Shown here: piece after piece, positions 1 to 20,000 of the stretch
Numbering within the stretch: position 1 is the first letter of the stretch
Layout of the letters: each line of letters begins with the position of its first letter
DNA from: Bilabrum cf. latius
Taxonomy: Eukaryota
Length of the DNA stretch: 20,000 nucleotides
Assembly: GCA_965178125.1 (NCBI GenBank)
Contig: OZ237763.1
Span: 861,870 to 881,869 of the forward strand
Reading direction: 5' to 3'
Program-made: the position numbers and the translations under genes
Notes under the pieces: generated by a model
The model's database searches: none
Told to the model about the DNA's origin: nothing
Seen by the model: only the letters and a program-made list of their open reading frames with translations

Positions 1-1966
1 GCCCGGGCAGTGTCGCTGTTGCAACTGGTGGCTTATCAGTTTTGCTAGCCGGTGTGGTGCTTGGCACTTTAGAGCGTTTAGCGGCGCTTGCTCCTTTACG
101 CCGTCTGGCAGCAGACCCACCACCTTTCTTCAGTGATGCAACAGCCGCTTTTCTTTTCTCTTCGTCCAACTGGGCCTCTGCAGCGGCTGCAGCCTCCGCA
201 TCCTTGGCTGCTTTCGAGAGTGCCTCGGTTCTGGCATCTTGCGCCGCTTTTGCAGCCCGCTCCAGCTCTACCATCCTTCGCTTCATCCTCTCATTCTCCT
301 CCTTTGCCCGCATCAGCTCCTGCTATGCTTGTGACGCCTTCACTTGCAGCGAGCTCGCTTGCTGGGCCACTGTGGAAGCCTCCATATCTCGCTGCGCGAG
401 CCTTGACTCTAGCTCCTGAATTCGCTTCTCTGCCTCTCTTGCAGCTGCCGACTTACCCCCCGAAAGCCTTCCAGGAAGCCTTTTCTGCTTAACCTTTGAT
501 TTTTCCTTGGGTTTCTTGGTCGCTGTTGGACTTGCCCCCTCCCCGCTGCCGGGGGTGCTCTTCGCGGCGGAGTCAGCTTCGGGCGCAGCCGGCGCGGTCG
601 TGATGCCGCCTGCAGATCGATGGACTGCACGACCGTTGCTTGCTTGTGCTTCGCTGCCACCATCAAACTGGAGTGTACTGCCAGGTTTCGAAGCTGTTTC
701 GCGTAAATCGGTACGGCTGGCGGCTGAACCCTGCTGCGCCACGACTGGCGATGCCTGGCTCTATCCAAGCGAGGCAGGCCAGTCACTTGTCAATTTCACA
801 CCTCTCTCTGCACTCTTCACGGGACTGATACCAACACCTGTAGCGAGTGCCCCGGCCTGGCCCGTGGTTGCCGAGCCCGAGGGTTGGTGCTCCAAAGAAG
901 ACTGATCCTGTTTCGATTCCAACGGATCTACGGATGAGCCGCCGGTAGAAGGCTCGAGACGTTCGGGGGCTGCTGCAGGGCTTGAAACGACCGGCTTGCC
1001 ACTGAATGCGATGTCGCCAGTCCCTACCTGTTTTGCGTCATCAGACTTCGAGTCTCCTGCTTGCGCACGACCTGGCTGTGCCACTCTGGACTCAACCTCA
1101 CCATTGTCTCCATTGCGAGCGAGGACAAGAACTTCGGTTTCACGCTAGTCGTGCCCCCTGGCGGGTCCATCGCCGCTATCCTCCCGCCTTTCGCCGCCGT
1201 CGAGCTCTGCTGCAGCGTCCTCGTCCTCGTCCTCGTCCATTGGAACCAGAGGCCTCTCGCTTGCCCGGCGTAACCAAGCCATCCACTCCTTGCCCATCTC
1301 TTCTGTCGGCGCCCTAAACTAAAGTGATCGCGGCTTGCTTATAACTGGGTCACTTGTGAGCTCGGGATCCCCGCGGAGCTGGCAGCTGACTGTGAACACA
1401 GCGTTGAACGGCACGCCTCGAGCCCCGGCACCGGAGGCTGCCCCCTTTGCTTCCCCTGACTCGCCAGCAGTCACCTCCAGCTCTGATATCTTGCATCCAA
1501 GCAGGTCAACTTCACCAAGTGGTGGATCACTCTTCGATTTGCACCAGTACAGGCGACATCCACGCACTCGGCAGAAGCGGCGCTTCCAGCTGCCGCTGCC
1601 TGGAGAGGCACGTTTGTCCAGCCACCCGTCTCCGCTGACACCGGATCGGCTTGCTCCCCGCAACAAGGTCAGCCAAGACTGTAGATGCTACTCTGATGGC
1701 GCCTGAAACGCAAGTCGTCTGCCGAATGCATCGGCACAAGCAAGCATGTGATCACGATTGTGCACTGCCTTGCTCACCGCATCCACTATTCCACCGCACA
1801 CATTGACGTAACCTTTGATTGCCCCGAGCTTGCTGGGTGATTTGGGATCTTTTTCCGCGTAGTGTAGCACGCCATGTCGAAACAAGCATTGCCGCTGCTT
1901 CCACGATCGAATCCAGCTACCTTCTTTCTCGATCTCGCCCCGAAACTCGAAAGGACACGATATCAT
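1..1966 (-). CDS. Tandem PH-domain protein with low-complexity linker and coiled coil; 3'-partial; contains 5 in-frame TAG codons
   Basis: ORFs 1688-1966, 1319-1666, 761-1084 and 323-742 share one frame. Manual translation from ATG (1964-1966) to the window edge finds only TAG interruptions (1688, 1319, 1145, 761, 323). PH1: 'GEIEKEGSWIRSWKQRQCLF..LHY...AFQAPSE*HLQSWLTLL'. PH2: 'GWLDKR...SWKRRFCRV..LYW...PLGEVDL...SL*FRAPTEEMGKEWMAWL'. Coiled coil: 'EAEKRIQELESRLAQR...QA*QELMRAKEENERMKRRMVELE'. Confidence 0.88.
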
Positions 1967-2130
1967 TGTATAAGTTAAGTCAAGAGCTCGCTCAACTGGT
2001 CATCAACCACGCTCTGGCTCTTCAATTGAGGGAGTTGCGGGCCGTCATATCTCGTCTAAGTGCTCGCAACTATCAGAGGCAGCCGTTTCGAACGATCCTG
2101 ACGCTCAGAGAGTGCCCAGCTGGGGTCATC
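1967..2130. promoter_or_regulatory. 164-bp intergenic region between head-to-head genes; probable bidirectional promoter
   Basis: Lies between the PH-gene ATG (1966, minus) and the BBS7 ATG (2131, plus). The call is positional; no specific motif was identified. Confidence 0.5.
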
Positions 2131-5100
2131 ATGGAGGTTCACATGTCATCTAGAGATTTGTTTCGCGTTGGACCTGTAGGCTACCGGGGTACGCTGCAGG
2201 TCCTTCCGAAAGGTAAAAAATCGAAAGTGAGTTATTTGCCTGCAAATGTATAGTCCTTCAGAGAGCTGTGTTCAACATTTTTGCAGATTCAAATTAAGTC
2301 CATATATCTTGCAGCCAAAAGTGGTCATTGGTGATGATTCAGGGTCAGTTCATTGCATAGAAGTCGACAAAGGAGTTGCAAAAGTGAGCGAGAGCAGAAC
2401 CATTCGCACTGAACCACGCTTTTAGTAAGTATTTCGTTGCGGTGGTTGACTTACCATTTTACGGCATGTTTTGTCCTCTCGTTCACAGAGAGCCTTCAAG
2501 ACTGATGCAAGCTCAAAGCCGGTCTCCTCGGTGACACTCGGTGGGGCCCCGACAAAGAAAGACAGAGTCTTCTACTCCACCTCTCAAACCATCACTGGGG
2601 TATCGAAGAAAGGAAAAGAGTTTTTCCGTTTCGATACGACACTCTCGGAGACAATAACTTCATCGTTCTCTGAAGAGACGAGGCTGTGGCTAGCGGCATC
2701 CACGGACTACGGTCTGTTCGACAACGGAACAGAAATGGAGTCTTACGCCGCACCAGATGCTATCCAAGACCTTGCAGTCGCAAATGTGACAAGAGACACG
2801 GAACCTGACGCAGTCCTTGCTTGCAAAGACGGGGCCGTAAGAGTGATCGCGGCGGGGTCGTCCGTCCTCGAGTACCGCCAGGGCAGCGGAACCGTGAGCG
2901 CGGGCTCCTCGGCAGCTGGTGCCGCAGCAGCCGCGGCATCTATCGGTGGTGGCGGCAGTGCAAGCGCTGCTGCTGCTGGGGCTCGGTCGGCCGGCGGTGT
3001 ATCGGGCGCCCGAAGCGTTCACTACTACCACCCTACTCTGCTGCGCGGAGAGTCTGCCTCGCTGCCCGCCTCTTCCGCTGCAGCCAAGGAGATGGCCAGC
3101 TCTTTGCCTGCCGGAAGCACCATCCCTGCCCCTCGAGCCGGACGCGGTCACCTGCCTCCGCCCCTGAGTCCGAGTCGCGCGAGGCATTTCCTGGTGGGCT
3201 CCGGGGCGGGGAGCGTGGCTCTGCTGCTTGCAGCCAGCGATGCAGTGCAGCCGCGGTGGACGCTGATGCCTTCTCGCGGGAGGGCGGGAGGTGGCACCGT
3301 GAACGCGATCACCTCGCTGGATGTGACTGGGGACGGCAGTCTGGACGTGGTGGTGGGCAGGGACGACGGGAGCGTGGATGTGCTGGGCGCGGAGGCAGGC
3401 CCACACGACCCCGCGGTGGTGTTCTCGCACCAGGTCGGGGACGCAGTGCAGAGCCTGCAAGCAGCTGCGGTACCCTCACCCGGTGACGGCGAGGTGCTGG
3501 CCGTGTCATTCTCGGGCAAGCTGGTGTCGCTGACCACTGAGTCGCTGTCAGCTGCGGCGGAGGGGGACAGCTACGGGCGCAGCAAGGAGGTGGTGGAGCG
3601 GGAGGCCAGAGTAGTGGCGCTCCGGTCCGAGATGAGTGCCTTGGAGAAGCAGGTGGAGAAGCAGCGATAGAGCATGTTGGATGCTTGGAAGAGCAGCGGG
3701 TTCTCCACGCCGGCCCTGGAGGCCATCGAGCAGGCGGCGGGGGCGGCGGGGGGTACGGGTGCGGGTGCGGGTGGGGGTGTCGCGAATGCAGGTGTGGTGG
3801 GCCAGGCCGCGGGACTAATGGCGCTTGCAGAGCCAGTCACTGCCGAGTGCCGATTGGAGGTGGATGAGGCAACTGCCAGCTACAGGATCGCGGTTGAATC
3901 TGCCTCGCTGGTAGAGAGCGTATCGTTGCTCAGCCCGGTGCCTCTGGAGATTCTCAAGACGGATCACAGCGCCAATGCCATCGTGTCCAAGACACAGCAG
4001 GAGGCGGCAAGGGGGGCCCAGGCAGCCCCGGCTAGCGGTCCGGAGGAGGCCAAGCCGGACCCACATGAGGATGCGTACGGCCCGGCGGGTTGCGACAAGT
4101 GGTCCTCTGTTCACACATTCCGATGCCAGGAACTCTCGCACAGGCTAGAACTGAGGGCGAGGGCCAGGGAGGGTCAGACAGGCGACGTTGAGGTGGTGGT
4201 CATCGCAGAACCTGGGGCGGCCGGGCGGCAGGCAGCTGCGGTCGAGACTGTCCGCATCCGTCCGCTGTCACTCCACTGCAGGTGCAGCGACAGCGCATTC
4301 GATGACGCAGTGCAAGCAGGCGCGAGCGCACCTGCAGGAGACGACCCCTCGCAGTCATGGCTCGCGGAAGCGGGGGCCAAGGCGCAAGCAGCCGCTGCCT
4401 CGCATGACTCGCAGGGGGCTCTGGTCGTTCGCGGGGAGTTCTCGCTTGGAAGGGCTCACGACTGGATCGAGCAGCTGCTTCCAGGTGTGCCCACACGCGC
4501 CGATACTGAGTCCGCCGCAGCTCGCTACGCGGAGCACGCGGCCACAGAGCGAGGCGTGCATGCCGGAGCCTCTGCGTCGGAAGTTGGTAAGCTGATGCCG
4601 CTGTCCGCGACGACTGGTGGCGCCGCAGATTCAGATGGAGCCTCAAGCGTTGAGGCTTCTGCAGCAAGTGGCCGGGGAGGAGGGCCGTCCTCTCGAGCAG
4701 TTCTCGTGTTCAGGAACTCGTTGGTGGGAACGCTGCTGCGCGCTGACTACTGCCGCGGTGAGATGGTGCTGCGGTCGTGCAACGCATCGTCCTTGGCGAT
4801 CGCGAGGGATTGGCTGCTCCAGCGCGCAGCAGCAGACAAGCTGAGCCTACAGGTGGACTGGCACATGCCTACTGCGTCTCTCAGGGCGGCTTGGGGCATG
4901 CTACACCCTCGGCTTCGATACGCCGCGTCGCTTTCAAAGCGAGCTGACCTGGCTGATGCTGTCAAGGAAGTAGCATTGTAGGAGGACGGCGACAGACCAT
5001 GGTTGTCGCAGGAGCTTAAAGACGTACTGCAGCACGGTAGCAGGTACAGGCGTGAGCTAGAGTCGCAACCCAACAAGCTTGAGGCACTGCAGTGTGTGCT

Positions 5101-5305
5101 GGAGGACCTCTTCATGCATCACCACAAGGCTCTCGGCGGTGACGTGTCAGCCCACGTTGAGGAACTGATGGCAGCCGCCAAAGAGGCCTACGAGTTCAAG
5201 TCGGAGGATGCTGCGGTCCAAGTTGGGTTCTCGGCTAGAGCCGACATGGGCAAAGTGGCACATGACTAGATGCTTGCTCTGCTAGAGCAATCTGGGGGTG
5301 ACTGA
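2131..5305 (+). CDS. BBS7: Bardet-Biedl syndrome 7 protein (BBSome subunit); join(2131..2226,2315..2383,2489..5305), about 993 aa, with 3 in-frame TAG codons
   Basis: Recalled BBS7 motifs appear in the expected order: 'MEVHMSSRDLFRVG', 'KVVIGDDSGSVHC', 'FKT...VTLGG', 'ITGVSKKGKEFFRFDTTLSETI', 'AVLACKDGAVRVI', 'DVTGDGSLDVVVGRDDGSVDV', 'FSGKLVSLTTE', 'TFRCQE..RLEL', 'IRPLSLHCR', 'GEFSLGRAHDWI', 'FRNSLVGTLL', 'LEDLF'. In-frame TAG at 3668, 4979 and 5267; the first TGA is at 5303-5305. The gene would end at 5269 if the last TAG is a true stop. Confidence 0.93.
2227..2314 (+). other. Spliceosomal intron 1 of BBS7 (88 bp)
   Basis: GTGAGT donor and ...tcttgcAG acceptor. Removal joins 'KGKKSK' to 'PKVVIGDD' in frame. 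Confidence 0.85.
2384..2488 (+). other. Spliceosomal intron 2 of BBS7 (105 bp)
   Basis: GTGAGC donor, a pyrimidine tract and cacAG acceptor. Removal joins 'DKGVAK' to 'RAFKT' in frame. Confidence 0.85.
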
Positions 5306-5359
5306 TTCAGGATCTGAAACCTGTCTCGGGATTTCTTTTCATATAAAGGATGTACGTTC

Positions 5360-5645
5360 CGGGGCTCACTCAGCCCACCTCCCATGCAGCCCAACCTCCA
5401 TCCGGGGCGCACCCAGCCCACTTCCCATGCAGCCCAACCTCCATCCGGGGCGCACCCAGCCCACTTCCCATACAGCCCAACCTCCATCCGGGGCGGACCC
5501 GGCCCACATCCCACGCAGCCCAACCTCCATCCGGGGCGCACCCAGCCCACCTCCCATGCAGCCCAACCTCCATCCGGGGCGCACCCAGCCCACTTCCCAT
5601 GCAGCCCAACCTCCATCTGGGGCGCACCCAGCCCACCTCCCATCC
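5360..5645. repeat. 43-bp C-rich minisatellite, about 6.5 copies
   Basis: Unit cagcccacytcccatgcagcccaacctccatccggggcgcacc; starts at 5371, 5414, 5457 and onward. Confidence 0.95.
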
Positions 5646-5682: not shown

Positions 5683-5718
5683 TAGGGTTAGGGTTAGGGT
5701 TAGGGTTAGGGTTAGGGT
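5683..5718 (+). repeat. Internal telomere tract 1, (TTAGGG)x6
   Basis: Direct reading. Confidence 0.97.
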
Positions 5719-7212
5719 ATCAGGGGGTCAACTTATACTTAGGGTCGGCCATTTTCGGCTTTTACGCTAGCGCGGTTCAGGGAACAAGACCCATATATTC
5801 TGATTGGGCATGCTTTAAAACCTAGGTTACAACTCCGAGTCGGGTCATAACTCTCCGCGGCGCCGCGGTTCCGCAGGGTTAGTGAAATCCGTCAGGGCCG
5901 TGTGCCGCCATGGGGTGGATCCGGAGTCGATATGTATAGACACCATTGTGTGCCCCGCGATGTGTACATACGATTCGACACTTGAAACGCAGCGATTGCA
6001 TGTGTTCCGGCCGAGATATGGAGGACATCCGACTTTTTTGCGCAGGTCGGATCTCCAAAATCAGTCGGAGATCCGACCTATGCGTTCGGGCGTGTCCAGG
6101 TCTACAGATGAGCGTTTGATGTTTGGTTTTCGATACAGAAGATGTATCGGGGTCCATGCCACCCGAGGAACACACACCAGGTGGTGTCAGGTACCGCGGC
6201 GCCGCGGTTCCGCAGGGTCAGTGAAATCCGTCAGGGCCGTGTGCCGCCATGGGGTGGATCCGGAGTCGATATGTATAGACACCATTGTGTGCCCCGCGAT
6301 GTGTACATACGATTCGACACTTGAAACGCAGCGATTGCATGTGTTCCGGCCGAGATATGGAGGACATCCGACTTTTTTGCGCAGGTCGGATCTCCAAAAT
6401 CAGTCGGAGATCCGACCTATGCGTTCGGGCGTGTCCAGGTCTACAGATGAGCGTTTGATGTTTGGTTTTCGATGCAGAAGATGTATCGGGGTCCATGCCA
6501 CCCGAGGAACACACACCAGGTGGTGTCAGGTACCGCGGCGCCGCGGTTCCGCAGGGTCAGTGAAATCCGTCAGGGCCGTGTGCCTCCATGGGGTGGATCC
6601 GGAGTCGATATGTATAGACACCATTGTGTGCCCCGCGATGTGTACATACGATTCGACACTTGAAACGCAGCGATTGCATGTGTTCCGGCCGAGATATGGA
6701 GGACATCCGACTTTTTTGCGCAGGTCGGATCTCCAAAATCAGTCGGAGATCCGACCTATGCGTTCGGGCGTGTCAAGGTCTACAGATGAGCGTTTGATGT
6801 TTGGTTTTCGATGCAGAAGATGTATCGGGGTCCATGCCACCCGAGGAACACACACCAGGTGGTGTCAGGTACCGCGGCGCCGCGGTTCCGCAGGGTCAGT
6901 GAAATCCGTCAGGGCCGTGTGCCTCCATGGGGTGGATCCGGAGTCGATATGTATAGACACCATTGTGTGCCCCGCGATGTGTACATACGATTCGACACTT
7001 GAAACGCAGCGATTGCATGTGTTCCGGCCGAGATATGGAGGACATCCGACTTTTTTGCGCAGGTCGGATCTCCAAAATCAGTCGGAGATCCGACCTATGC
7101 GTTCGGGCGTGTCCAGGTCTACAGATGAGCGTTTGATGTTTTGTTTTCGATGCAGAAGATGTATCGGGGTCCATGCCACCCGGGGAACACACACCAGGTG
7201 GTGTTAGGTACC
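5719..7212. repeat. Cassette A: ~136-bp unique leader plus 4 copies of a 339-bp tandem repeat
   Basis: Units start with ccgcggcgccgcggttccgcagg at 5855, 6194, 6533 and 6872; copies are near-identical. Confidence 0.95.
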
Positions 7213-7213
7213 T

Positions 7214-7495
7214 TTAGGGTTAGGGTTGGGTTAGGGTTAGGGTTAGGGTTAGGGTTAGGGTTAGGGTTAGGGTTAGGGTTAGGGTTAGGGTTAGGGTTAG
7301 GGTTAGGGTTAGGGTTAGGGTTAGGGTTAGGGTTAGGGTTAGGGTTAGGGTTAGGGTTAGGGTTAGGGTTAGGGTTAGGGTTAGGGTTAGGGTTAGGGTT
7401 AGGGTTAGGGTTAGGGTTAGGGTTAGGGTTAGGGTTAGGGTTAGGGTTAGGGTTAGGGTTAGGGTTAGGGTTAGGGTTAGGGTTAGGGTTAGGGT
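7214..7495 (+). repeat. Internal telomere tract 2, about 47 TTAGGG repeats
   Basis: Direct reading; one TTGGG variant near the proximal end. Confidence 0.97.
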
Positions 7496-8224
7496 ATCTA
7501 ATATAAAGTCAGGGACAGGGTCGGGGAAAAAATATTTTCATCTTCATTTTTTTGTCGAAAATGTGCCCTCTGCGATCTCAGCAACTAGAATAGGTATGAA
7601 GATGATTCAAACTGTTTTGGGATGGCCTAGGGCCATATCATGGGGCAAATGTTCCCCAGGTTCCGTTTTGACCGCGCGGCGACGATACTGGCTGATGAAG
7701 ATTTACATGCCGAAAATGTGCCCTCTGCGATCTCAGCAACTAGAATAGGTATGAAGATGATTCAAACTGTTTTGGGATGGCCTAGGGCCATATCATGGGG
7801 CAAATGTTCCCCAGGTTCCGTTTTGACCGTGCGGCGACGATACTGGCTGATGAAGATTTACATGCCGAAAATGTGCCCTCTGCGATCTCAGCAACTAGAA
7901 TAGGTATGAAGATGATTCAAACTGTTTTGGGACGGCCTAGGGCCATATCATGGGGCAAATGTTCCCCAGGTTCCGTTTTGACCGCGCGGCGACGATACTG
8001 GCTGATGAAGATTTACATGCCGTAAATGTGCCCTCTGCGATCTCAGCAACTAGAATAGGTATGAAGATGATTCAAACTGTTTTGGGACGGCCTAGGGCCA
8101 TATCATGGGGCAAATGTTCCCCAGGTTCCGTTTTGACCGCGCGGCGACGATACTGGCTGATGAAGATTTACATGCCGAAAATGTGCCCTCTGCGATCTCA
8201 GCAACTAGAATAGGTATGAAGATG
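7496..8224. repeat. Cassette B: ~60-bp leader plus about 4.3 copies of a 155-bp tandem repeat
   Basis: Units start with cg(a/t)aaatgtgccctctgcg at 7556, 7711, 7866, 8021 and 8176 (last one truncated). Confidence 0.95.
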
Positions 8225-8376
8225 GTTAGGGTTAGGGTTAGGGTTAGGGTTAGGGTTAGGGTTAGGGTTAGGGTTAGGGTTAGGGTTAGGGTTAGGGTTA
8301 GGGTTAGGGTTAGGGTTAGGGTTAGGGTTAGGGTTAGGGTTAGGGTTAGGGTTAGGGTTAGGGTTAGGGTTAGGGT
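8224..8376 (+). repeat. Internal telomere tract 3, about 25 TTAGGG repeats
   Basis: Direct reading. Confidence 0.97.
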
Positions 8377-9913
8377 ATCTGGGGGTCATGTTAGGATCGG
8401 GGCACGCCCATTTTTGCACCAAAAAATAAACCGTCGCACATTATATATATTTAGATAGCCCTTGATGCGTAGATATCCGTAAAAATTTTGCCTAGGGTCG
8501 ATTTCTCAATATTAAGCGAGATACGCGGAGGTCTAGGGTCACCATGGGAGCGTCAAATTTCAGGGGCCTGTTTGGGTTGTATGTGGATCGATTGGAGTGT
8601 GCATGCGTGTATGTGGTTGTTCCCTGTGGCCAACAATGTGGAATGCACCGCTCGTGTGCCCTGTCAGTGCTTCGGCGGCGCCGGTTCCGCAGGCGGCTTG
8701 AAATGGCTTGTGCGAGCGGTTTCGCCAAGGGGTCGATCCGGAGTCGATATTGTCAGGCCCCATCCGACGCGTCTCGATGCGTAGATATCCGTAAAAATTT
8801 TGCCTAGGGTCGATTTCTCAATATTAAGCGAGATACGCGGAGGTCTAGGGTTGGCAGGTGGGCGCCAGGACGGGTACTCAGGGGCTGTGTGAGCGGGCCT
8901 GTTTGGGTTGTATGTGGATCGATTGGAGTGTGCATGCGTGTATGTGGTTGTTCCCTGTGGCCAACAATGTGGAATGCACCGCTCGTGTGCCCTGTCAGTG
9001 CTTCGGCGGCGCCGGTTCCGCAGGCGGCTTGAAATGGCTTGTGCGAGCGGTTTCGCCAAGGGGTCGATCCGGAGTCGATATTGTCAGGCCCCATCCGACG
9101 CGTCTCGATGCGTAGATATCCGTAAAAATTTTGCCTAGGGTCGATTTCTCAATATTAAGCGAGATACGCGGAGGTCTAGGGTTGGCAGGTGGGCGCCAGG
9201 ACGGGTACTCAGGGGCTGTGTGAGCGGGCCTGTTTGGGTTGTATGTGGATCGATTGGAGTGTGCATGCGTGTATGTGGTTGTTCCCTGTGGCCAACAATG
9301 TGGAATGCACCGCTCGTGTGCCCTGTCAGTGCTTCGGCGGCGCCGGTTCCGCAGGCGGCTTGAAATGGCTTGTGCGAGCGGTTTCGCCAAGGGGTCGATC
9401 CGGAGTCGATATTGTCAGGCCCCATCCGACGCGTCTCGATGCGTAGATATCCGTAAAAATTTTGCCTAGGGTCGATTTCTCAATATTAAGCGAGATACGC
9501 GGAGGTCTAGGGTTGGCAGGTGGGCGCCAGGACGGGTACTCAGGGGCTGTGTGAGCGGGCCTGCTTGGGTTGTATGTGGATCGATTGGAGTGTGCATGTG
9601 TGTATGTGGTTGTTCCCTGTGGCCAACAATGTGGAATGCACCGCTCGTGTGCCCTGTCAGTGCTTCGGCGGCGCCGGTTCCGCAGGCGGCTTGAAATGGC
9701 TTGTGCGAGCGGTTTCGCCAAGGGGTCAATCCGGAGTCGATATTGTCAGGCCCCATCCGACGCGTCTCGATGCGTAGATATCCGTAAAAATTTTGCCTAG
9801 GGTCGATTTCTCAATATTAAGCGAGATACGCGGAGGTCTAGGGTTGGCAGGTGGGCGCCAGGACGGGTACTCAGGGGCTGTGTGAGCGGGCCTGTTTGGG
9901 TTGTATGTGGATC
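8377..9913. repeat. Cassette C copy 1: ~87-bp leader, a 312-bp variant first unit, then 331-bp repeats (about 4.4 units in total)
   Basis: Units start with gatgcgtagatatcc at 8464, 8776, 9107, 9438 and 9769; truncated at 9913 and followed by a single TTAGGG. Confidence 0.95.
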
Positions 9914-10012
9914 TTAGGGTTTTTTTATTGAGGTTTAGGGTTGGATCAGAAGAGTGAATCAGTGATATACATGGTTCGATTGGCAGTGAGGATTACTTTG
10001 AACTTAGGCATT

Positions 10013-10596
10013 TCAATGCTCCTCGCCCTCAGCTTGTGCTGCTGCGGCCGCTTGGCGGGCATCCAGGACTCCTGTGATGTAGGCCATGCGCTACTCCAGG
10101 CGTTCCAGCAGCCAGTCTGCATTCTCGCCTTCACGGACATCGCACATCCGGACCTGGTTTCCAGCTCTGCGCTTCTGCTTCCCGATCCTCTTGGAGTTAT
10201 CCTTGTACTTTTGAACCTCCTAGACGGTGATTGGGGCTGCACCTCCTGCTTGTGGTGCTGGCGGGACTGGTGCTTGACCTGCAGCTCCTGCAGCAGCTTG
10301 TGCTGGTGGGACTGGTGCTTGACCTGCAGCTCCTGCAGCAGCTTGTGCTGGTGGGACTGGTGCTTGACCTGCAGCTCCTGCAGCAGCTTGTTGGGCTGGT
10401 GGGGCTGGTGCTTGACCTGCTGCTCCTGCAGCAGCTTGTGCTGGTGGGACTGGTGCTTGACCTGCAGCTCCTGCAGCAGCTTGTGCTGGTGGGACTGGTG
10501 CTTGACCTGCAGCTCCTGCAGCAGCTTGTTGGGCTGGTGGGGCTGGTGCTTGACCTGCAGCTCCTGCAGCAGCTTGATGGGCTGGTGGTGCTGGAG
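10013..10596 (-). CDS. C-terminal fragment (~194 aa) of an unknown protein: Pro/Ala/Gln repeats plus a basic, helical tail; 2 in-frame TAG codons; no start codon
   Basis: Manual translation: (QAAAGAAGQAPVPPA-like)x7-PQAGGAAPITV*EVQKYKDNSKRIGKQKRRAGNQVRMCDVREGENADWLLERLE*RMAYITGVLDARQAAAAAQAEGEEH-TGA. TAG at 10220 and 10091. Repeat units of 45 and 48 bp preserve the frame. Not present in the supplied ORF track. Confidence 0.55.
10257..10595. repeat. 45/48-bp frame-preserving tandem repeat, about 7 copies
   Basis: Unit ctggtgggactggtgcttgacctgcagctcctgcagcagcttgtg, with +3-bp variants. Confidence 0.92.
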
Positions 10597-11208
10597 GGGT
10601 TAGGGTTAGGGTTAGGGTTAGGGTTAGGGTTAGGGTTAGGGTTAGGGTTAGGGTTAGGGTTAGGGTTAGGGTTAGGGTTAGGGTTAGGGTTAGGGTTAGG
10701 GTTAGGGTTAGGGTTAGGGTTAGGGTTAGGGTTAGGGTTAGGGTTAGGGTTAGGGTTAGGGTTAGGGTTAGGGTTAGGGTTAGGGTTAGGGTTAGGGTTA
10801 GGGTTAGGGTTAGGGTTAGGGTTAGGGTTAGGGTTAGGGTTAGGGTTAGGGTTAGGGTTAGGGTTAGGGTTAGGGTTAGGGTTAGGGTTAGGGTTAGGGT
10901 TAGGGTTAGGGTTAGGGTTAGGGTTAGGGTTAGGGTTAGGGTTAGGGTTAGGGTTAGGGTTAGGGTTAGGGTTAGGGTTAGGGTTAGGGTTAGGGTTAGG
11001 GTTAGGGTTAGGGTTAGGGTTAGGGTTAGGGTTAGGGTTAGGGTTAGGGTTAGGGTTAGGGTTAGGGTTAGGGTTAGGGTTAGGGTTAGGGTTAGGGTTA
11101 GGGTTAGGGTTAGGGTTAGGGTTAGGGTTAGGGTTAGGGTTAGGGTTAGGGTTAGGGTTAGGGTTAGGGTTAGGGTTAGGGTTAGGGTTAGGGTTAGGGT
11201 TAGGGTTA
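10597..11208 (+). repeat. Long internal telomere tract, about 102 TTAGGG repeats
   Basis: Direct reading; no variant repeats seen. Confidence 0.97.
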
Positions 11209-13910
11209 CAGTACCATCCTAGGCCAGGCCCGGGCGCCGCGAAAGTATCATGTTCCGCAAAAAGTATCATGTTCCGCAATGACGGCGGTGCCGCGCAGTG
11301 TCCAAGTGGTCGCAAGATCGCGCCGAGGCGGATCTTGGCCAGTTGCAGAGATGCAAGCAGTCGACAAGAGGTGCGAGTGGTTGGCAATGCATATTTGGTG
11401 TATGATTATGCGTGTCTGCTTGGTTTGCAATGAATCTCGGCCTCGGTCTCCTCGGTGGTGCGGCTCATGGGTGACGAACACCCAGGGGGCTGCACGGGAT
11501 GGACGCGCACCCGGCGAGTCTGGACCAAACCGCGTCGTGCAAATTGGGTTTGCCAAGGAGGTGTGCCCTGCTGTGTTTCGCCCGCGAGAATAGGGGGTTG
11601 TCTCCCCGTCGGGCAGGTATTCCATCCAGCTCGCCCGTCCGTGACTGAGACAGCACGGGCCGCGACAAGTGCGCGAGCCCGGGGATCAAGTCAGCGGCCG
11701 ATGGCAGCGAGCCGGCATGAAGCGCGTGCACGAGGAGCTTGCGCTCCCCATGCACTGCCTGCCCCACCTCATTGCGGATCTGGGACATCAGGTTCATCGT
11801 GTTGCCACACACACCTCCACACTCGACGATCGGATCTACAGAGACACCTGTCCCGGGATGCTGCTCCTCGTCATTGGCCTGCTCCTTCTCGCCCCGGGGG
11901 CACGCGCTGCCTCGAAGCACGCACCCGCGCTCCCGCCCGACTCAAGGACTGAGTGCTGGGAGGGTGCGCGGGCAGCCGCGTGAGAGGATGACGGGCGTGC
12001 CGCCGAAGGCCGAGTCCAGGAGCTGGGGACGGGACGCATCGTTGGGACTGCCCTGAAGAGACCAAAGAATCAACCGCCATCCGTACGGAACCCTATATGG
12101 TCGGCCGGTCTGACTCTCTGCTCGCCCACCGCACGGATCTGCTCAGTTCCATGCAATGTTTGCCAGAAGCGGCGAGAGGGTCTCATCAGCACAGGTGGGT
12201 CCTAAAAGCTGCCTGCAATGCATAAGAAAAGAATAAAACGGTTGAAAATAAATTAATAGCCCCTCGATGCATGGCAACATACCCGAGTGCTGCCATGAAA
12301 ACCGGACAACGCACAAGCACGTCAGCAGACCAGCGACCTTCCCATTCAGATGCCAGAACCTAACACAAATACAAAGCAAACAAACTGAATGAATACAATA
12401 GAATCAAAATACCTGGCGGTTGTTTTACTCGGGCTATGCTGTACCTGGCTGTTCTGTCTGCAAGCGCCATCGCGCGCCCCAATGAGGCGAGACCTAAGCA
12501 GAGCTACAGCAGCATGCCACCTTGGACACACCGCGATATACGGCAGTAAATGGTATTAAATATTAATCCCAACAGGTTCCAGGACACTTGAGACTGTCTG
12601 TGGTGCTGAGAGGTATGGTTGCGCTAGATTTCGCAAACGGTTGTGAACAGCGGAACCAGTTAGCTAGGCGGCGCGGCGTCTTAGGCTGCACAATGCTGCC
12701 AGACTCAGCAGTGAATACCGTCAATCTCGCATCATAGTTTCAAACGATGAGTACTTTTGTTGTATGTGTTAGTGGAAGTCAGTCCGAGTGCATTGGTTGG
12801 GCGAATATTTGAGATTCTCTCACCTTCGCAGTTGCTGCAGCTACTAGATGTATACGCGGACCATCCACTACTTCGCAATATGAAAACGCTGGCGCATTAT
12901 TTCCGCATGAATTCAACTGAGTCCCCTTCCACACGCTAGGCAGCAAGCATCACTATTCACCAGTGGACTTGCCAAAGTCCCTACTACTCCTGTAGTGGCT
13001 GCCTGGGCTGATTCCGATGTCCGGGTTATCAATACCGTCCTAGCACGCTGCCAGAAACCTTCATTGAATGCAATCAAATATCATTGCCTGAGGTGCCGGT
13101 CATTTGGATAGAGAAGGAAGTCACATTTCTGCTGGCTGGCACTGAGGTGCTGCCTCAAGGACGTCGTCCTACATGTTGGGACCAAGCAAATCATACTCCG
13201 TTCGGTGGATTGATCGTTGTACAAGTTTTAAGACTTTATATATCGAGTTACCATGCGGACCACAAAGCGGACCGATCCCAAGGTGGCACATCCGCATCTC
13301 CACCCAGTGGGGCTCCCAACCAGCTTGCCCCAGCATAGCCACCATGGCCCCATCCATCGCCCACACACCCAACCAGCTTGCCCCGGCACAGCCACCACGG
13401 CCCCCTCCATCGCCCACACACCCAACCAGCTTGCCCCAGCACAGCCACCACGGCCCCCTCCATCGCCCGCACTCCCGACCTGCTTGCCCCAGCACAGCCA
13501 CCATAGCCCCCATCCATCGCCCACACACCCTACTTGCTCCGGCACAGCCACCATGGCCCCCTCCATCGCCCACACACCCAACCAGCTTGCCCCAGCACAG
13601 CCACCATGGCTCCATCCATCGCCCACACACCCAACCAGCTTGCCCCAGCACAGCCACCATGGCTCCATCCATCGCCCACACACCCAACCAGCTTGCCCCG
13701 GCACAGCCACCATAGCCCCCATCCATCGCCCACACACCCTACTTGCTCCGGCACAGCCACCATGGCCCCATCCATCGCCCACACACCCAACCAGCTTGCC
13801 CCAGCACAGCCACCATGGCTCCATCCATCGCCCACACACCCAACCAGCTTGCCCCGGCACAGCCACCATAGCCCCCATCCATCGCCCACACACCCTACTT
13901 GCTCCGGCAC
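11209..13910. mobile_element. Cassette E copy 1: 2.7-kb telomere-embedded element with no recognisable protein, ending in a minisatellite
   Basis: Bounded on both sides by TTAGGG tracts and repeated at an offset of 2830 bp. The duplication is seen directly; mobility is inferred. Confidence 0.6.
13315..13910. repeat. ~53-bp C-rich minisatellite with shorter variant units, about 11.5 copies
   Basis: Unit cccaaccagcttgccccagcacagccaccatggccccatccatcgcccacaca; starts at 13315, 13368, 13421 and onward. Confidence 0.93.
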
Positions 13911-14038
13911 AGGGTTAGGGTTAGGGTTAGGGTTAGGGGTTAGGGTTAGGGTTAGGGTTAGGGTTAGGGTTAGGGTTAGGGTTAGGGTTAGGGTTAGGGT
14001 TAGGGTAAGGGTTAGGGTTAGGGTTAGGGTTAGGGTTA
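13911..14038 (+). repeat. Internal telomere tract, about 21 repeats, with TTAGGGG and TAAGGG variants
   Basis: Direct reading. Confidence 0.97.
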
Positions 14039-16740
14039 CAGTACCATCCTAGGCCAGGCCCGGGCGCCGCGAAAGTATCATGTTCCGCAAAAAGTATCAT
14101 GTTCCGCAATGACGGCGGTGCCGCGCAGTGTCCAAGTGGTCGCAAGATCGCGCCGAGGCGGATCTTGGCCAGTTGCAGAGATGCAAGCAGTCGACAAGAG
14201 GTGCGAGTGGTTGGCAATGCATATTTGGTGTATGATTATGCGTGTCTGCTTGGTTTGCAATGAATCTCGGCCTCGGTCTCCTCGGTGGTGCGGCTCATGG
14301 GTGACGAACACCCAGGGGGCTGCACGGGATGGACGCGCACCCGGCGAGTCTGGACCAAACCGCGTCGTGCAAATTGGGTTTGCCAAGGAGGTGTGCCCTG
14401 CTGTGTTTCGCCCGCGAGAATAGGGGGTTGTCTCCCCGTCGGGCAGGTATTCCATCCAGCTCGCCCGTCCGTGACTGAGACAGCACGGGCCGCGACAAGT
14501 GCGCGAGCCCGGGGATCAAGTCAGCGGCCGATGGCAGCGAGCCGGCATGAAGCGCGTGCACGAGGAGCTTGCGCTCCCCATGCACTGCCTGCCCCACCTC
14601 ATTGCGGATCTGGGACATCAGGTTCATCGTGTTGCCACACACACCTCCACACTCGACGATCGGATCTACAGAGACACCTGTCCCGGGATGCTGCTCCTCG
14701 TCATTGGCCTGCTCCTTCTCGCCCCGGGGGCACGCGCTGCCTCGAAGCACGCACCCGCGCTCCCGCCCGACTCAAGGACTGAGTGCTGGGAGGGTGCGCG
14801 GGCAGCCGCGTGAGAGGATGACGGGCGTGCCGCCGAAGGCCGAGTCCAGGAGCTGGGGACGGGACGCATCGTTGGGACTGCCCTGAAGAGACCAAAGAAT
14901 CAACCGCCATCCGTACGGAACCCTATATGGTCGGCCGGTCTGACTCTCTGCTCGCCCACCGCACGGATCTGCTCAGTTCCATGCAATGTTTGCCAGAAGC
15001 GGCGAGAGGGTCTCATCAGCACAGGTGGGTCCTAAAAGCTGCCTGCAATGCATAAGAAAAGAATAAAACGATTGAAAATAAATTAATAGCCCCTCGATGC
15101 ATGGCAACATACCCGAGTGCTGCCATGAAAACCGGACAACGCACAAGCACGTCAGCAGACCAGCGACCTTCCCATTCAGATGCCAGAACCTAACACAAAT
15201 ACAAAGCAAACAAACTGAATGAATACAATAGAATCAAAATACCTGGCGGTTGTTTTACTCGGGCTATGCTGTACCTGGCTGTTCTGTCTGCAAGCGCCAT
15301 CGCGCGCCCCAATGAGGCGAGACCTAAGCAGAGCTACAGCAGCATGCCACCTTGGACACACCGCGATATACGGCAGTAAATGGTATTAAATATTAATCCC
15401 AACAGGTTCCAGGACACTTGAGACTGTCTGTGGTGCTGAGAGGTATGGTTGCGCTAGATTTCGCAAACGGTTGTGAACAGCGGAACCAGTTAGCTAGGCG
15501 GCGCGGCGTCTTAGGCTGCACAATGCTGCCAGACTCAGCAGTGAATACCGTCAATCTCGCATCATAGTTTCAAACGATGAGTACTTTTGTTGTATGTGTT
15601 AGTGGAAGTCAGTCCGAGTGCATTGGTTGGGCGAATATTTGAGATTCTCTCACCTTCGCAGTTGCTGCAGCTACTAGATGTATACGCGGACCATCCACTA
15701 CTTCGCAATATGAAAACGCTGGCGCATTATTTCCGCATGAATTCAACTGAGTCCCCTTCCACACGCTAGGCAGCAAGCATCACTATTCACCAGTGGACTT
15801 GCCAAAGTCCCTACTACTCCTGTAGTGGCTGCCTGGGCTGATTCCGATGTCCGGGTTATCAATACCGTCCTAGCACGCTGCCAGAAACCTTCATTGAATG
15901 CAATCAAATATCATTGCCTGAGGTGCCGGTCATTTGGATAGAGAAGGAAGTCACATTTCTGCTGGCTGGCACTGAGGTGCTGCCTCAAGGACGTCGTCCT
16001 ACATGTTGGGACCAAGCAAATCATACTCCGTTCGGTGGATTGATCGTTGTACAAGTTTTAAGACTTTATATATCGAGTTACCATGCGGACCACAAAGCGG
16101 ACCGATCCCAAGGTGGCACATCCGCATCTCCACCCAGTGGGGCTCCCAACCAGCTTGCCCCAGCATAGCCACCATGGCCCCATCCATCGCCCACACACCC
16201 AACCAGCTTGCCCCGGCACAGCCACCACGGCCCCCTCCATCGCCCACACACCCAACCAGCTTGCCCCAGCACAGCCACCACGGCCCCCTCCATCGCCCGC
16301 ACTCCCGACCTGCTTGCCCCAGCACAGCCACCATAGCCCCCATCCATCGCCCACACACCCTACTTGCTCCGGCACAGCCACCATGGCCCCCTCCATCGCC
16401 CACACACCCAACCAGCTTGCCCCAGCACAGCCACCATGGCTCCATCCATCGCCCACACACCCAACCAGCTTGCCCCAGCACAGCCACCATGGCTCCATCC
16501 ATCGCCCACACACCCAACCAGCTTGCCCCGGCACAGCCACCATAGCCCCCATCCATCGCCCACACACCCTACTTGCTCCGGCACAGCCACCATGGCCCCA
16601 TCCATCGCCCACACACCCAACCAGCTTGCCCCAGCACAGCCACCATGGCTCCATCCATCGCCCACACACCCAACCAGCTTGCCCCGGCACAGCCACCATA
16701 GCCCCCATCCATCGCCCACACACCCTACTTGCTCCGGCAC
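14039..16740. mobile_element. Cassette E copy 2 (near-identical direct repeat of 11209-13910)
   Basis: All ORFs recur at +2830. One substitution was noticed (12241 g vs 15071 a). Confidence 0.6.
16145..16740. repeat. ~53-bp minisatellite in cassette E copy 2
   Basis: Same as 13315-13910. Confidence 0.93.
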
Positions 16741-16812
16741 AGGGTTAGGGTTAGGGTTAGGGTTAGGGGTTAGGGTTAGGGTTAGGGTTAGGGTTAGGGT
16801 TAGGGTTAGGGT
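16741..16812 (+). repeat. Internal telomere tract, about 12 repeats
   Basis: Direct reading; same TTAGGGG variant position as the tract at 13911. Confidence 0.97.
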
Positions 16813-19512
16813 ATCTGGGGGTCATGTTAGGATCGGGGCACGCCCATTTTTGCACCAAAAAATAAACCGTCGCACATTATATATATTTAGATAGCCCTTG
16901 ATGCGTAGATATCCGTAAAAATTTTGCCTAGGGTCGATTTCTCAATATTAAGCGAGATACGCGGAGGTCTAGGGTCACCATGGGAGCGTCAAATTTCAGG
17001 GGCCTGTTTGGGTTGTATGTGGATCGATTGGAGTGTGCATGCGTGTATGTGGTTGTTCCCTGTGGCCAACAATGTGGAATGCACCGCTCGTGTGCCCTGT
17101 CAGTGCTTCGGCGGCGCCGGTTCCGCAGGCGGCTTGAAATGGCTTGTGCGAGCGGTTTCGCCAAGGGGTCGATCCGGAGTCGATATTGTCAGGCCCCATC
17201 CGACGCGTCTCGATACGTAGATATCCGTAAAAATTTTGCCTAGGGTCGATTTCTCAATATTAAGCGAGATACGCGGAGGTCTAGGGTTGGCAGGTGGGCG
17301 CCAGGACGGGTACTCAGGGGCTGTGTGAGCGGGCCTGTTTGGGTTGTATGTGGATCGATTGGACCATGCATGTGTGTATGTGGTTGTTCCCTGTGGCCAA
17401 CAATGTGGAATGCACCGCTCGTGTGCCCTGTCAGTGCTTCGGCGGCGCCGGTTCCGCAGGCGGCTTGAAATGGCTTGTGCGAGCGGTTTCGCCAAGGGGT
17501 CGATCCGGAGTCGATATTGTCAGGCCCCATCCGACGCGTCTCGATGCGTAGATATCCGTAAAAATTTTGCCTAGGGTCGATTTCTCAATATTAAGCGAGA
17601 TACGCGGAGGTCTAGGGTTGGCAGGTGGGCGCCAGGACGGGTACTCAGGGGCTGTGTGAGCGGGCCTGTTTGGGTTGTATGTGGATCGATTGGAGTGTGC
17701 ATGCGTGTATGTGGTTGTTCCCTGTGGCCAACAATGTGGAATGCACCGCTCGTGTGCCCTGTCAGTGCTTCGGCGGCGCCGGTTCCGCAGGCGGCTTGAA
17801 ATGGCTTGTGCGAGCGGTTTCGCCAAGGGGTCGATCCGGAGTCGATATTGTCAGGCCCCATCCGACGCGTCTCGATGCGTAGATATCCGTAAAAATTTTG
17901 CCTAGGGTCGATTTCTCAATATTAAGCGAGATACGCGGAGGTCTAGGGTTGGCAGGTGGGCGCCAGGACGGGTACTCAGGGGCTGTGTGAGCGGGCCTGT
18001 TTGGGTTGTATGTGGATCGATTGGAGTGTGCATGCGTGTATGTGGTTGTTCCCTGTGGCCAACAATGTGGAATGCACCGCTCGTGTGCCCTGTCAGTGCT
18101 TCGGCGGCGCCGGTTCCGCAGGCGGCTTGAAATGGCTTGTGCGAGCGGTTTCGCCAAGGGGTCGATCCGGAGTCGATATTGTCAGGCCCCATCCGACGCG
18201 TCTCGATGCGTAGATATCCGTAAAAATTTTGCCTAGGGTCGATTTCTCAATATTAAGCGAGATACGCGGAGGTCTAGGGTTGGCAGGTGGGCGCCAGGAC
18301 GGGTACTCAGGGGCTGTGTGAGCGGGCCTGTTTGGGTTGTATGTGGATCGATTGGAGTGTGCATGCGTGTATGTGGTTGTTCCCTGTGGCCAACAATGTG
18401 GAATGCACCGCTCGTGTGCCCTGTCAGTGCTTCGGCGGCGCCGGTTCCGCAGGCGGCTTGAAATGGCTTGTGCGAGCGGTTTCGCCAAGGGGTCGATCCG
18501 GAGTCGATATTGTCAGGCCCCATCCGACGCGTCTCGATGCGTAGATATCCGTAAAAATTTTGCCTAGGGTCGATTTCTCAATATTAAGCGAGATACGCGG
18601 AGGTCTAGGGTTGGCAGGTGGGCGCCAGGACGGGTACTCAGGGGCTGTGTGAGCGGGCCTGCTTGGGTTGTATGTGGATCGATTGGACCATTCATGTGTG
18701 TATGTGGTTGTTCCCTGTGGCCAACAATGTGGAATGCACCGCTCGTGTGCCCTGTCAGTGCTTCGGCGGCGCCGGTTCCGCAGGCGGCTTGAAATGGCTT
18801 GTGCGAGCGGTTTCGCCAAGGGGTCGATCCGGAGTCGATATTGTCAGGCCCCATCCGACGCGTCTCGATGCGTAGATATCCGTAAAAATTTTGCCTAGGG
18901 TCGATTTCTCAATATTAAGCGAGATACGCGGAGGTCTAGGGTTGGCAGGTGGGCGCCAGGACGGGTACTCAGGGGCTGTGTGAGCGGGCCTGTTTGGGTT
19001 GTATGTGGATCGATTGGAGTGTGCATGCGTGTATGTGGTTGTTCCCTGTGGCCAACAATGTGGAATGCACCGCTCGTGTGCCCTGTCAGTGCTTCGGCGG
19101 CGCCGGTTCCGCAGGCGGCTTGAAATGGCTTGTGCGAGCGGTTTCGCCAAGGGGTCGATCCGGAGTCGATATTGTCAGGCCCCATCTGACGCGTCTCGAT
19201 GCGTAGATATCCGTAAAAATTTTGCCTAGGGTCGATTTCTCAATATTAAGCGAGATACGCGGAGGTCTAGGGTTGGCAGGTGGGCGCCAGGACGGGTACT
19301 CAGGGGCTGTGTGAGCGGGCCTGTTTGGGTTGTATGTGGATCGATTGGAGTGTGCATGCGTGTATGTGGTTGTTCCCTGTGGCCAACAATGTGGAATGCA
19401 CCGCTCGTGTGCCCTGTCAGTGCTTCGGCGGCGCCGGTTCCGCAGGCGGCTTGAAATGGCTTGTGCGAGCGGTTTCGCCAAGGGGTCGATCCGGAGTCGA
19501 TATTGTCAGGCC
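16813..19512. repeat. Cassette C copy 2: same leader and variant first unit, then 331-bp repeats (about 8 units in total)
   Basis: Matches 8377 onward at an offset of 8436. Units start at 16900, 17212, 17543, 17874, 18205, 18536, 18867 and 19198 (last one truncated). Confidence 0.95.
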
Positions 19513-20000
19513 TAGCAGGGTTAGGGTTAGTTTAGGGGTTAGGGTTAGGTTAGGGTTAGGGTTAGGGTTAGGGTTAGGGTTAGGGTTAGGGTTAGGGTTA
19601 GGGTTAGGGTTAGGGTTAGGGTTAGGGTTAGGGTTAGGGTTAGGGTTAGGGTTAGGGTTAGGGTTAGGGTTAGGGTTAGGGTTAGGGTTAGGGTTAGGGT
19701 TAGGGTTAGGGTTAGGGTTAGGGTTAGGGTTAGGGTTAGGGTTAGGGTTAGGGTTAGGGTTAGGGTTAGGGTTAGGGTTAGGGTTAGGGTTAGGGTTAGG
19801 GTTAGGGTTAGGGTTAGGGTTAGGGTTAGGGTTAGGGTTAGGGTTAGGGTTAGGGTTAGGGTTAGGGTTAGGGTTAGGGTTAGGGTTAGGGTTAGGGTTA
19901 GGGTTAGGGTTAGGGTTAGGGTTAGGGTTAGGGTTAGGGTTAGGGTTAGGGTTAGGGTTAGGGTTAGGGTTAGGGTTAGGGTTAGGGTTAGGGTTAGGGT
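19513..20000 (+). repeat. Probable terminal telomere (TTAGGG)n with degenerate first repeats, running off the window
   Basis: tagcagggttagggttagtttaggggttagggttaggttaggg followed by perfect repeats to base 20000. It could be another internal tract. Confidence 0.9.

Follow-up and report, generated by a model that had tools for sequence, protein, structure and literature searches.

How can a telomere come to alternate with other DNA in a polarised chain, and was the intervening DNA reverse transcribed from RNA or copied from other chromosome ends? The question is raised by a 20,000-nt stretch of the genome of the eukaryote Bilabrum cf. latius (assembly GCA_965178125.1, contig OZ237763.1, positions 861,870 to 881,869 of the forward strand), here called the window and numbered from its first letter. 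From position 5683 to its end the window consists of eight tracts of the telomere repeat TTAGGG (T1 to T8) that alternate with seven modules, of the kinds A to E. Our analysis covers the 20-kb window, one comparison with public read contigs confined to positions 9560-10596, and published papers. The window is a genuine chromosome terminus of an organism that reads TAG as a sense codon, and this chromosome end is real and unusual. Its growth by successive terminal addition of modules and healing by telomerase is well supported, and at least one step of that growth is recombinational. The window cannot show whether the added DNA came from RNA or from other chromosome ends, and a retroelement origin, proposed in an initial annotation made from the letters alone, is possible but unproven.

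A polarised chain of telomere tracts and modules

From the unique part of the window outward, the chain reads T1-A-T2-B-T3-C1-T4-D-T5-E1-T6-E2-T7-C2-T8, C1 and C2 as well as E1 and E2 being two copies of one module (Table 1). The order given by the initial annotation, tel-A-tel-B-tel-C-(one TTAGGG)-D-tel-E-tel-E-tel-C-tel over 5683-20000, is borne out in its coordinates and junction strings, and so is the single orientation of the tracts: all eight carry TTAGGG on the + strand, and arrays of two or more CCCTAA units occur nowhere in the window. The modules have a common layout, in which a unique head adjoins the proximal tract and a tandem array lies at the distal, telomere-capped break. This anatomy is far beyond chance and is without an obvious mis-join.

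The tracts are themselves polarised. Irregular units (TTTAGGG, TTGGG, TTAGGGG, CAGGG, TTAG, TTAGG and others) are confined, partial first units aside, to units one to seven of a tract, the sole exception being a TAAGGG at unit 17 of T6, and the tracts are perfect up to the next module. Natural telomeres and newly healed ones have this arrangement, with irregular units at the base and perfect ones further out, and its presence in the tracts makes it probable that each of them formerly was a terminal telomere. T1 is the original healed end of the chromosome.

All seven proximal junctions read ...TTAGGGT and continue with ATC (5719, 7496, 8377 and 16813), with T7ATTGAGG, which opens on a run of seven T (9921), or with TACAG (11207 and 14037). 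One shared register, TTAGGGT^, as had been proposed, is thus literally compatible with 7/7 junctions, but the case for it is weak and statistically not demonstrable: the longest match to the telomere stops at T in A, B and C, at TT in D and at TTA in E. At most five of the seven junctions are independent, since C1 equals C2 and E1 equals E2, and only about three would be so if A, B and C share theirs by descent. The three kinds of proximal end (ATC head, T-run and TACAG) are unrelated, so the modules are not one family of cassettes, as the initial annotation had inferred.

At the other side of the modules, seven distal ends give six different breaks (E1 and E2 break identically). All seven lie within repeat arrays, as the initial annotation had it, and these have periods of 339, 155, 331, 45, 53/209 and 331 bp. 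The further claim of a fixed proximal and a ragged distal end is exemplified by C1 versus C2; within one family, this is the sole informative pair.

Table 1. Features of the window, from the unique part to the chromosome tip; a vertical stroke in junction strings is written as a slash.
Feature	Position	Strand	Description
PH-domain protein gene	2..1999	-	5 in-frame TAG codons
BBS7 gene	2450..5305	+	3 in-frame TAG codons; ends at TGA (5303-5305)
Native subterminal 43-bp C-rich satellite	5358..5643		6.7 copies, 93% matches; found with TRF
T1	5683..5718	+	6 units; joined to unique DNA ..CTCGGAA/TAGGG
Module A	5719..7212	+	head 5719-5854 starts ATCAGGGGGTCA; 339-bp satellite x4.0 at 5855-7212; break ..GGTACC/TTTAGGG
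T2	7213..7495	+	47 units; irregular units (TTTAGGG, TTGGG) only among the first three
Module B	7496..8224	+	head 7496-7555 starts ATCTAATATAAAGTCAGGG; 155-bp satellite x4.3; break ..GAAGATG/GTTAGGG
T3	8225..8376	+	~25 perfect units
Module C, copy 1 (C1)	8377..9913	+	head 8377-8563 starts ATCTGGGGGTCA; 331-bp satellite x4.1; break ..GTGGATC/TTAGGG
T4	9914..9920	+	single TTAGGG(T); other parse: irregular telomere seed 9914-9944
Module D	9921..10596	-	open frame, short tail, AATAAAAAAA, CCCTAA (- strand); 45-bp repeat x7 at 10255-10576; break ..GCTGGAG/GGGTTAGGG
T5	10597..11206	+	~102 perfect units; longest internal tract
Module E, copy 1 (E1)	11207..13910	+	2.1 kb non-repetitive from TACAGTACC; 53/209-bp C-rich satellite from 13315; break ..CCGGCAC/AGGGTTAGGG
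T6	13911..14036	+	21 units; first 72 nt, with TTAGGGG variant at unit 5, identical to whole T7
Module E, copy 2 (E2)	14037..16740	+	1 mismatch in 2704 nt against E1 (12241, G versus A); break as E1
T7	16741..16812	+	12 units; identical to first 72 nt of T6
Module C, copy 2 (C2)	16813..19512	+	head and proximal junction as C1; 7.6 satellite units; break ..GTCAGGCC/TAGCAGGG
T8	19513..20000	+	terminal, at least 82 units, runs off the window; five irregular units among the first seven

Duplication of module E through telomere tracts

A clear record of a mechanism in the chain is E-tel-E, which is one recombinational duplication and not two independent additions. The near-identity of E1 and E2, their shared break and the recurrence of the beginning of T6, TTAGGGG variant included, as the whole of T7 point together to a DNA-level duplication that ran through telomere tracts, and at least one step in the growth of this chromosome end was therefore of that kind.

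Module E has no terminal inverted repeats, and the idea of a Tc1-like terminus (TA/CAGT) was dropped for that reason. In both copies the E head has, 35 nt from its start, an exact direct duplication of 19 bp (2.0 copies), at 11242-11279 and again at 14072-14109.

Heads and satellite bodies of modules A, B and C

The two copies of module C differ by 8 mismatches over their first 1537 nt and are colinear from the head outward; their identity is 99.5% in register and ~97.5% with a one-unit shift, and they break off at different positions, C1 after 4.1 and C2 after 7.6 units. Among the different modules, homology is concentrated at the proximal end. Modules A and C are clearly homologous over the first 48 nt of their heads, where the alignment scores 23 and shuffled sequence averages -3.2 (p=0.0005; 11 matches in the first 12 nt), and the B-C similarity is marginal (p=0.0185); the A-B similarity is not significant (p=0.068), and beyond ~45 nt the remainder of the A and C heads cannot be aligned (p=0.29). 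On these alignments, the conserved portion across A, B and C is the ~45 nt that touch the telomere. These ~45-nt heads abut (TTAGGG)n and begin with two to three NNNGGG motifs on the G-strand, which D and E lack. No comparison of E or of D (from 9921) with the A, B and C heads was convincing (0/6); that of B with E reaches p=0.0085, but without a common start.

The satellites of A and C have a common core of ~80-110 nt at ~73% identity, and the B satellite shares nothing with them. In the A head, B unit, C head and C unit, the motif TAGGG occurs on the + strand only, at 6-10 per kb, compared with none on the + and three on the - strand in the 5682-bp unique part of the window; a strand-biased density of this sort is typical of sequence long resident next to telomeres. 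Healing sites coincide with a TAGGG seed at 0/6 distinct distal junctions.

Two further observations concern these satellites. Each 339-bp unit of module A has a perfect 12-bp inverted repeat (GGTCGGATCTCC .. GGAGATCCGACC), the first at 6040-6085, along with a further stem; folded as single-stranded DNA, the hairpin reaches -19.7 kcal/mol (z = -5.2), and 0/200 shuffles are as stable. The 331-bp satellite of module C (8564-9913 and 17000-19512) has a summed contig depth of ~1000-5000 in the public short-read run X1, compared with 81 for the contig at the D junction, and of up to ~16000 in X2, a strong difference between runs that carry one organism label. Contig depths are only a rough measure, and the figures hint that the copy number of this satellite varies among samples.

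Module D and the search for protein, RNA and mobile-element signatures

Module D opens on the + strand with seven T, preceded by the complement of AATAAA. Just as well, 9914-9944 (TTAGGG T7ATTGAGG TTTAGGG TTGG) may be taken for an irregular telomere seed, in which case D would start with ATCAG at 9945. A likeness between the heads of A and of D taken from 9945 (p=0.0025) was rejected, since the alignment is gappy and is one of 15 comparisons.

Public contigs that match D (10038-10330 and 10470-10596) exceed the unique D junction contig several-fold in depth and part from the window sequence at 10038, 10183 and 10260, which indicates that parts of D belong to a dispersed, multi-copy family. Its frames, compared with 1.84 billion representative proteins, gave no relatives besides one unrelated match: the one match of the C-terminal 75 aa (E=1.1e-4) is a bacterial repeat protein that we judged unrelated. 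D is thus a member of a dispersed, species-specific repeat or gene family without detectable relatives elsewhere. In codon-position GC and in a rough scan of codon log-odds, for which the two flanking genes served as training set, the modules score within the overlap of coding and non-coding sequence, so D and E cannot be called coding; the best log-odds score of D is on the + strand, inside its 45-bp repeat.

Signatures of mobile elements were likewise not detected in the modules. None of nine module open reading frames (ORFs) reached the Pfam cut-off, and no reverse transcriptase (RT), gag, endonuclease or helicase was found in that scan, the sub-threshold matches being only DUF5026 and SoFic_C (E 0.035-0.04). 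A scan of all 20 kb with Rfam 15, on both strands at E<=1, gave no matches, hammerheads included, and a tRNA search of the modules gave none either. A poly(A) is missing from A, B, C and E, and D alone has a possible oligo(A), of 7 nt and ambiguous. In the ESM Atlas, the E ORF led to unnamed clusters only and the D ORF to no usable match (recognition scores 1046 and 1402). A metagenome scan with the head/telomere junction motif returned five loci, of which 0/5 were in telomeric context, and these were set aside as chance matches.

Mechanism of module addition

It is well supported that the end grew outward in steps: one subterminal module after another was joined to a telomere that in many cases was short, the earlier terminal tracts were buried in this way, and telomerase healed the break inside the array of each new module. 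For the way in which the modules were added, we favour a DNA-templated, Y'-like stacking, to which we give somewhat less than an even chance. According to this scheme, strand invasion would start from a tract inside the chain or from a telomere that is short or broken, and its target would be the tract that precedes a module, either on the sister chromatid or at some other chromosome end. Break-induced replication or unequal exchange would copy DNA outward from the invasion point; replication would then break in fragile satellites, and healing of these breaks by telomerase would leave the ragged distal ends. Modules A, B and C would represent one old telomere-associated satellite family, with a ~45-nt head that is telomere-adjacent by descent, and D and E may have been captured once each, perhaps by microhomology with GGGTT or GGGTTA.

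Several features speak for such copying. A module with its distal tract has the complete layout of a native end, as displayed by the gene, 43-bp satellite and telomere at the chromosome's own end; E-tel-E records one duplication at the DNA level; counted outward from the head, C1 and C2 show their best alignment in register; and the location of all seven distal breaks in tandem arrays is what would be expected of fragile satellites that were later healed. The satellite bodies and telomere-like seeds, together with the failure to find any retroelement feature in the modules, fit as well, and there are precedents in the growth of MoTeR arrays (PMC7367193) and in Chlamydomonas telomerase mutants (PMC10620057), both described below. 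A DNA-level route accounts for the anatomy at least as well as a retroelement route, and, while the anatomy, the polarity and the E-tel-E duplication are shown, we infer that the junctions other than that of E-tel-E were made by DNA copying rather than by reverse transcription. A number of points nevertheless weigh against this scheme. DNA copying propagates an existing telomere/head junction and leaves the origin of the first one unexplained. The restriction of A/B/C conservation to ~45 nt at the telomere looks more like a functional terminus, such as a shared 3' tail, than like neutral descent. C1 and C2 share the proximal and not the distal end, although both would be common to them if whole units had been copied in the Y' manner. 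On its - strand D ends in AATAAAAAAA directly joined to CCCTAA, which could be taken for a poly(A) tail that was primed by the G-overhang. Finally, long near-perfect tracts imply that the junctions are young, and this requires either seven young events or one copied 14-kb chain.

Some of these points are what the RNA-templated terminal addition of the initial annotation would lead one to expect, a reading that we regard as possible although doubtful. The modules would then be 5'-truncated complementary DNAs (cDNAs) of non-coding satellite RNAs, the - strand being the sense strand, and their shared ~45-nt 3' tail, with its telomere-complementary CCCNNN, would pair with the G-overhang. The RNA would be copied by an enzyme with its gene elsewhere, either telomerase itself or an RT of the endonuclease-deficient Penelope-like or some other type, and the resulting truncated cDNA would be capped by telomerase. 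A polyadenylated RNA, added likewise, would have given D, the - strand end of which (AATAAAAAAA/CCCTAA) is in keeping with this, and E-tel-E would be a later recombinational duplication, as in MoTeR arrays. The polarity of the capped modules is that of known telomeric retroelements, with the 3' end on the repeats and the truncated 5' end toward the tip, and the comparison that had been drawn with MoTeR arrays and endonuclease-deficient Penelope-like elements agrees with PMC7367193 and PMC8557442. The head motif NNNGGG corresponds to CCCNNN on the - strand, as at the ends of endonuclease-deficient Penelope-like elements (figure legend in PMC8557442). Bodies that differ among A, B and C next to a conserved telomere-adjacent end, the common proximal junction but different distal breaks of C1 and C2, and internal tracts of down to 1-6 units, as if modules had been added onto critically short ends, would all be accommodated. 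On the other side, fragments of RT, gag or endonuclease number zero in seven modules and 14.3 kb, although such arrays should hold some truncated copies of an autonomous partner, and neither Rfam families such as the hammerhead nor, in A, B, C and E, a poly(A) were found. Bodies that are almost wholly satellite of 155-339 bp are unusual for retroelements, the proximal ends are of three kinds, and D and E do not have the common head. D itself is without detectable protein relatives and of ambiguous coding status, and its run of seven T may belong to an irregular telomere seed. Of the initial interpretation, the single polarity of the chain, the capping of the modules by what look like former terminal telomeres and, in addition, the conservation of the ~45 nt next to the telomere are supported.

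The same final anatomy, a fixed 3' junction in the repeat with variable 5' truncation, would also result if an endonuclease-bearing element, in the manner of SART/TRAS, had inserted site-specifically into an existing telomere array, the flanking tracts then being parts of one older telomere. This we consider quite improbable. The proximal flank of E, TTA/CAGT, does resemble a TA target followed by a CAGT terminus, but E lacks terminal inverted repeats and its distal end is not ..ACTG/TA. The Pfam scan showed no endonuclease or RT ORF in the modules, the proximal ends are of three different kinds, and irregular units at the base of the distal tracts are more in keeping with de novo healing than with the cutting of a perfect array. 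More improbable still is an assembly artefact in which telomeric reads or contigs were chained in error. Run X1 has a 209-nt short-read contig (depth 80.9, 0 differences) that covers 9884-10092 and connects the C satellite with D across the lone TTAGGG and the T-run, which means that this junction is not a long-read chimera; against this, X1 may be the very sample behind the window's assembly, and the read check covers 1/14 telomere/module junctions. In run X2, which is from another sample, a contig joins the C head to its array at the join point of the window, and in run X5, from another study and under another organism label, the 331-bp satellite is present in tandem with 2 differences in 361 nt. 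Contigs of X2 and X3 do not cover 9945-10014, and those of X5 do not cover the D junction, but a gap in cover proves nothing. Chimeric telomeric joins would often be head-to-head, whereas the eight tracts all have one orientation; besides, C1 and C2 repeat one head junction, and E1 and E2 are separated by a real substitution. The probability left after these four readings belongs to their mixtures or to something not considered.

Comparison with known telomeric systems

The closest described system is the MoTeR arrays of Magnaporthe oryzae; the likeness is in how the system works, and family membership anywhere is not established. According to PMC7367193, MoTeR modules are arranged head-to-tail in TTAGGG in one orientation, with the proximal 3' end on the repeats; truncated copies are capped, interstitial tracts break and are healed, and there is a non-autonomous member, MoTeR2. 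The arrays grow by break-induced replication and D-loop tandem amplification, which leave identical interstitial tracts (PMC7367193), as seen in E-tel-E. Internal tracts reach 102 units here, compared with at most 18 reported in that paper. MoTeRs encode or derive from an RT element, whereas no RT or other ORF family was found in the modules of the window, which have satellite bodies of 155-339 bp and at least three unrelated kinds of proximal end. In addition, variant repeats (TTCGGG/TTTGGG) mark intact MoTeR 5' ends; the modules show no ends of this kind, but all their distal ends are truncated inside arrays, which leaves no intact 5' end for comparison.

Athena and Coprina, endonuclease-deficient Penelope-like elements, attach at chromosome ends via the G-overhang, and their 5'-truncated copies are telomere-capped; the NNNCCC reverse-complement telomere-like repeats at the element end match the NNNGGG of the A, B and C heads (PMC8557442). 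The differences are that a Penelope-type RT ORF was not found (0/9 module ORFs), which would hold as well for a non-autonomous derivative, that the hammerhead motif was missing from the Rfam results for the 20 kb, and that the modules are mostly satellite.

Yeast Y' elements, including those of type I survivors, are subterminal units of one orientation with short telomere tracts between them, and their amplification by recombination or break-induced replication is primed in these tracts. Both ends of a Y' unit are fixed, and the units encode a helicase. As a recombinational analogue, a role in which they had been cited at the outset, they suit E1 and E2, with their shared break, 72-nt tract prefix and single mismatch, but not C1 and C2, the distal breaks of which differ. 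Moreover, no helicase or other recognisable ORF was found here by Pfam, and the tracts are long and perfect.

In Zepp of Chlorella, HeT-A/TART of Drosophila, SART/TRAS of Bombyx and endonuclease-independent L1, the poly(A) end faces the centromere and 5'-truncated copies are stacked at chromosome ends. The GGGTT/T-run junction of D resembles a poly(A) primed on TTAGGG, as for L1 at dysfunctional telomeres. In contrast to the Zepp, HeT-A/TART and SART/TRAS elements, only D has an oligo(A), of ambiguous nature, and no coding sequence for gag, RT or endonuclease was found in the modules.

The Sultan, Suber and Subtile arrays of Chlamydomonas are comparable in that they lie directly under the telomere, have seeds in its orientation, and undergo breaks within the array followed by healing (PMC8287924, PMC10620057); telomere-like seeds are described for Sultan and Suber (PMC8287924). 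In Chlamydomonas telomerase mutants, a telomere was made interstitial by foreign DNA joined via a 4-bp microhomology and was re-capped (PMC10620057). Wild-type arrays are not interleaved with long telomere tracts, and at the six distinct distal junctions of the window the telomere never starts in phase at a seed.

Implications

Telomeres in which telomerase repeats alternate with other DNA form a link between ends maintained by telomerase and those maintained by retroelements or recombination. In the present case, a single readable stretch of 14 kb records at least five kinds of added module, with young near-perfect tracts, a conserved head and one recombinational step. A literature search of main texts found no description of satellite modules alternating with telomere tracts in such form. 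If the additions were DNA-templated, the locus would be a compact natural case of Y'-like dynamics, or of dynamics like the alternative lengthening of telomeres, at the ends of a telomerase-positive organism, as well as a warning that the polarity of a chain does not by itself identify retrotransposition. That a telomerase-positive eukaryote extends its ends with cDNAs of cellular or selfish non-coding RNAs, mostly satellite transcripts with the common ~45-nt tail and now and then a polyadenylated RNA, made directly on the G-overhang by an endonuclease-free RT or by a template-switching telomerase and then re-capped, is a tentative proposition and, in our estimate, a rather unlikely one. RNA-templated modules would amount to a novel class of telomere-targeting elements, non-autonomous and present in a lineage whose genetic code is variant, and, if the cDNA reading is true, the first telomere-specific retroelements that are satellite-bodied, non-autonomous and similar to short interspersed nuclear elements.

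Chromosomal setting

Both genes proximal to the chain (Table 1), one for a PH-domain protein and the other BBS7, give Pfam family matches only with TAG read through, from which it follows that TAG is a sense codon in this organism. In-frame TAA is found in neither of the two. The alignment of BBS7 to a relative runs across two TAG positions, and the relative has Q at one of them. The native 43-bp satellite is placed between the BBS7 stop codon and T1, from which 39 nt separate it; this satellite and the 53-bp satellite of module E are C-rich on the same strand, although blastn found no similarity between them. A protein search with BBS7 retrieved two weak relatives, with 29% and 36% identity. 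The beta-propeller of BBS7 (window 2880-3200) is broken by a long low-complexity insert rich in Ala, Gly and Ser, across which the aligned part of the closest relative found is shorter and largely gapped.

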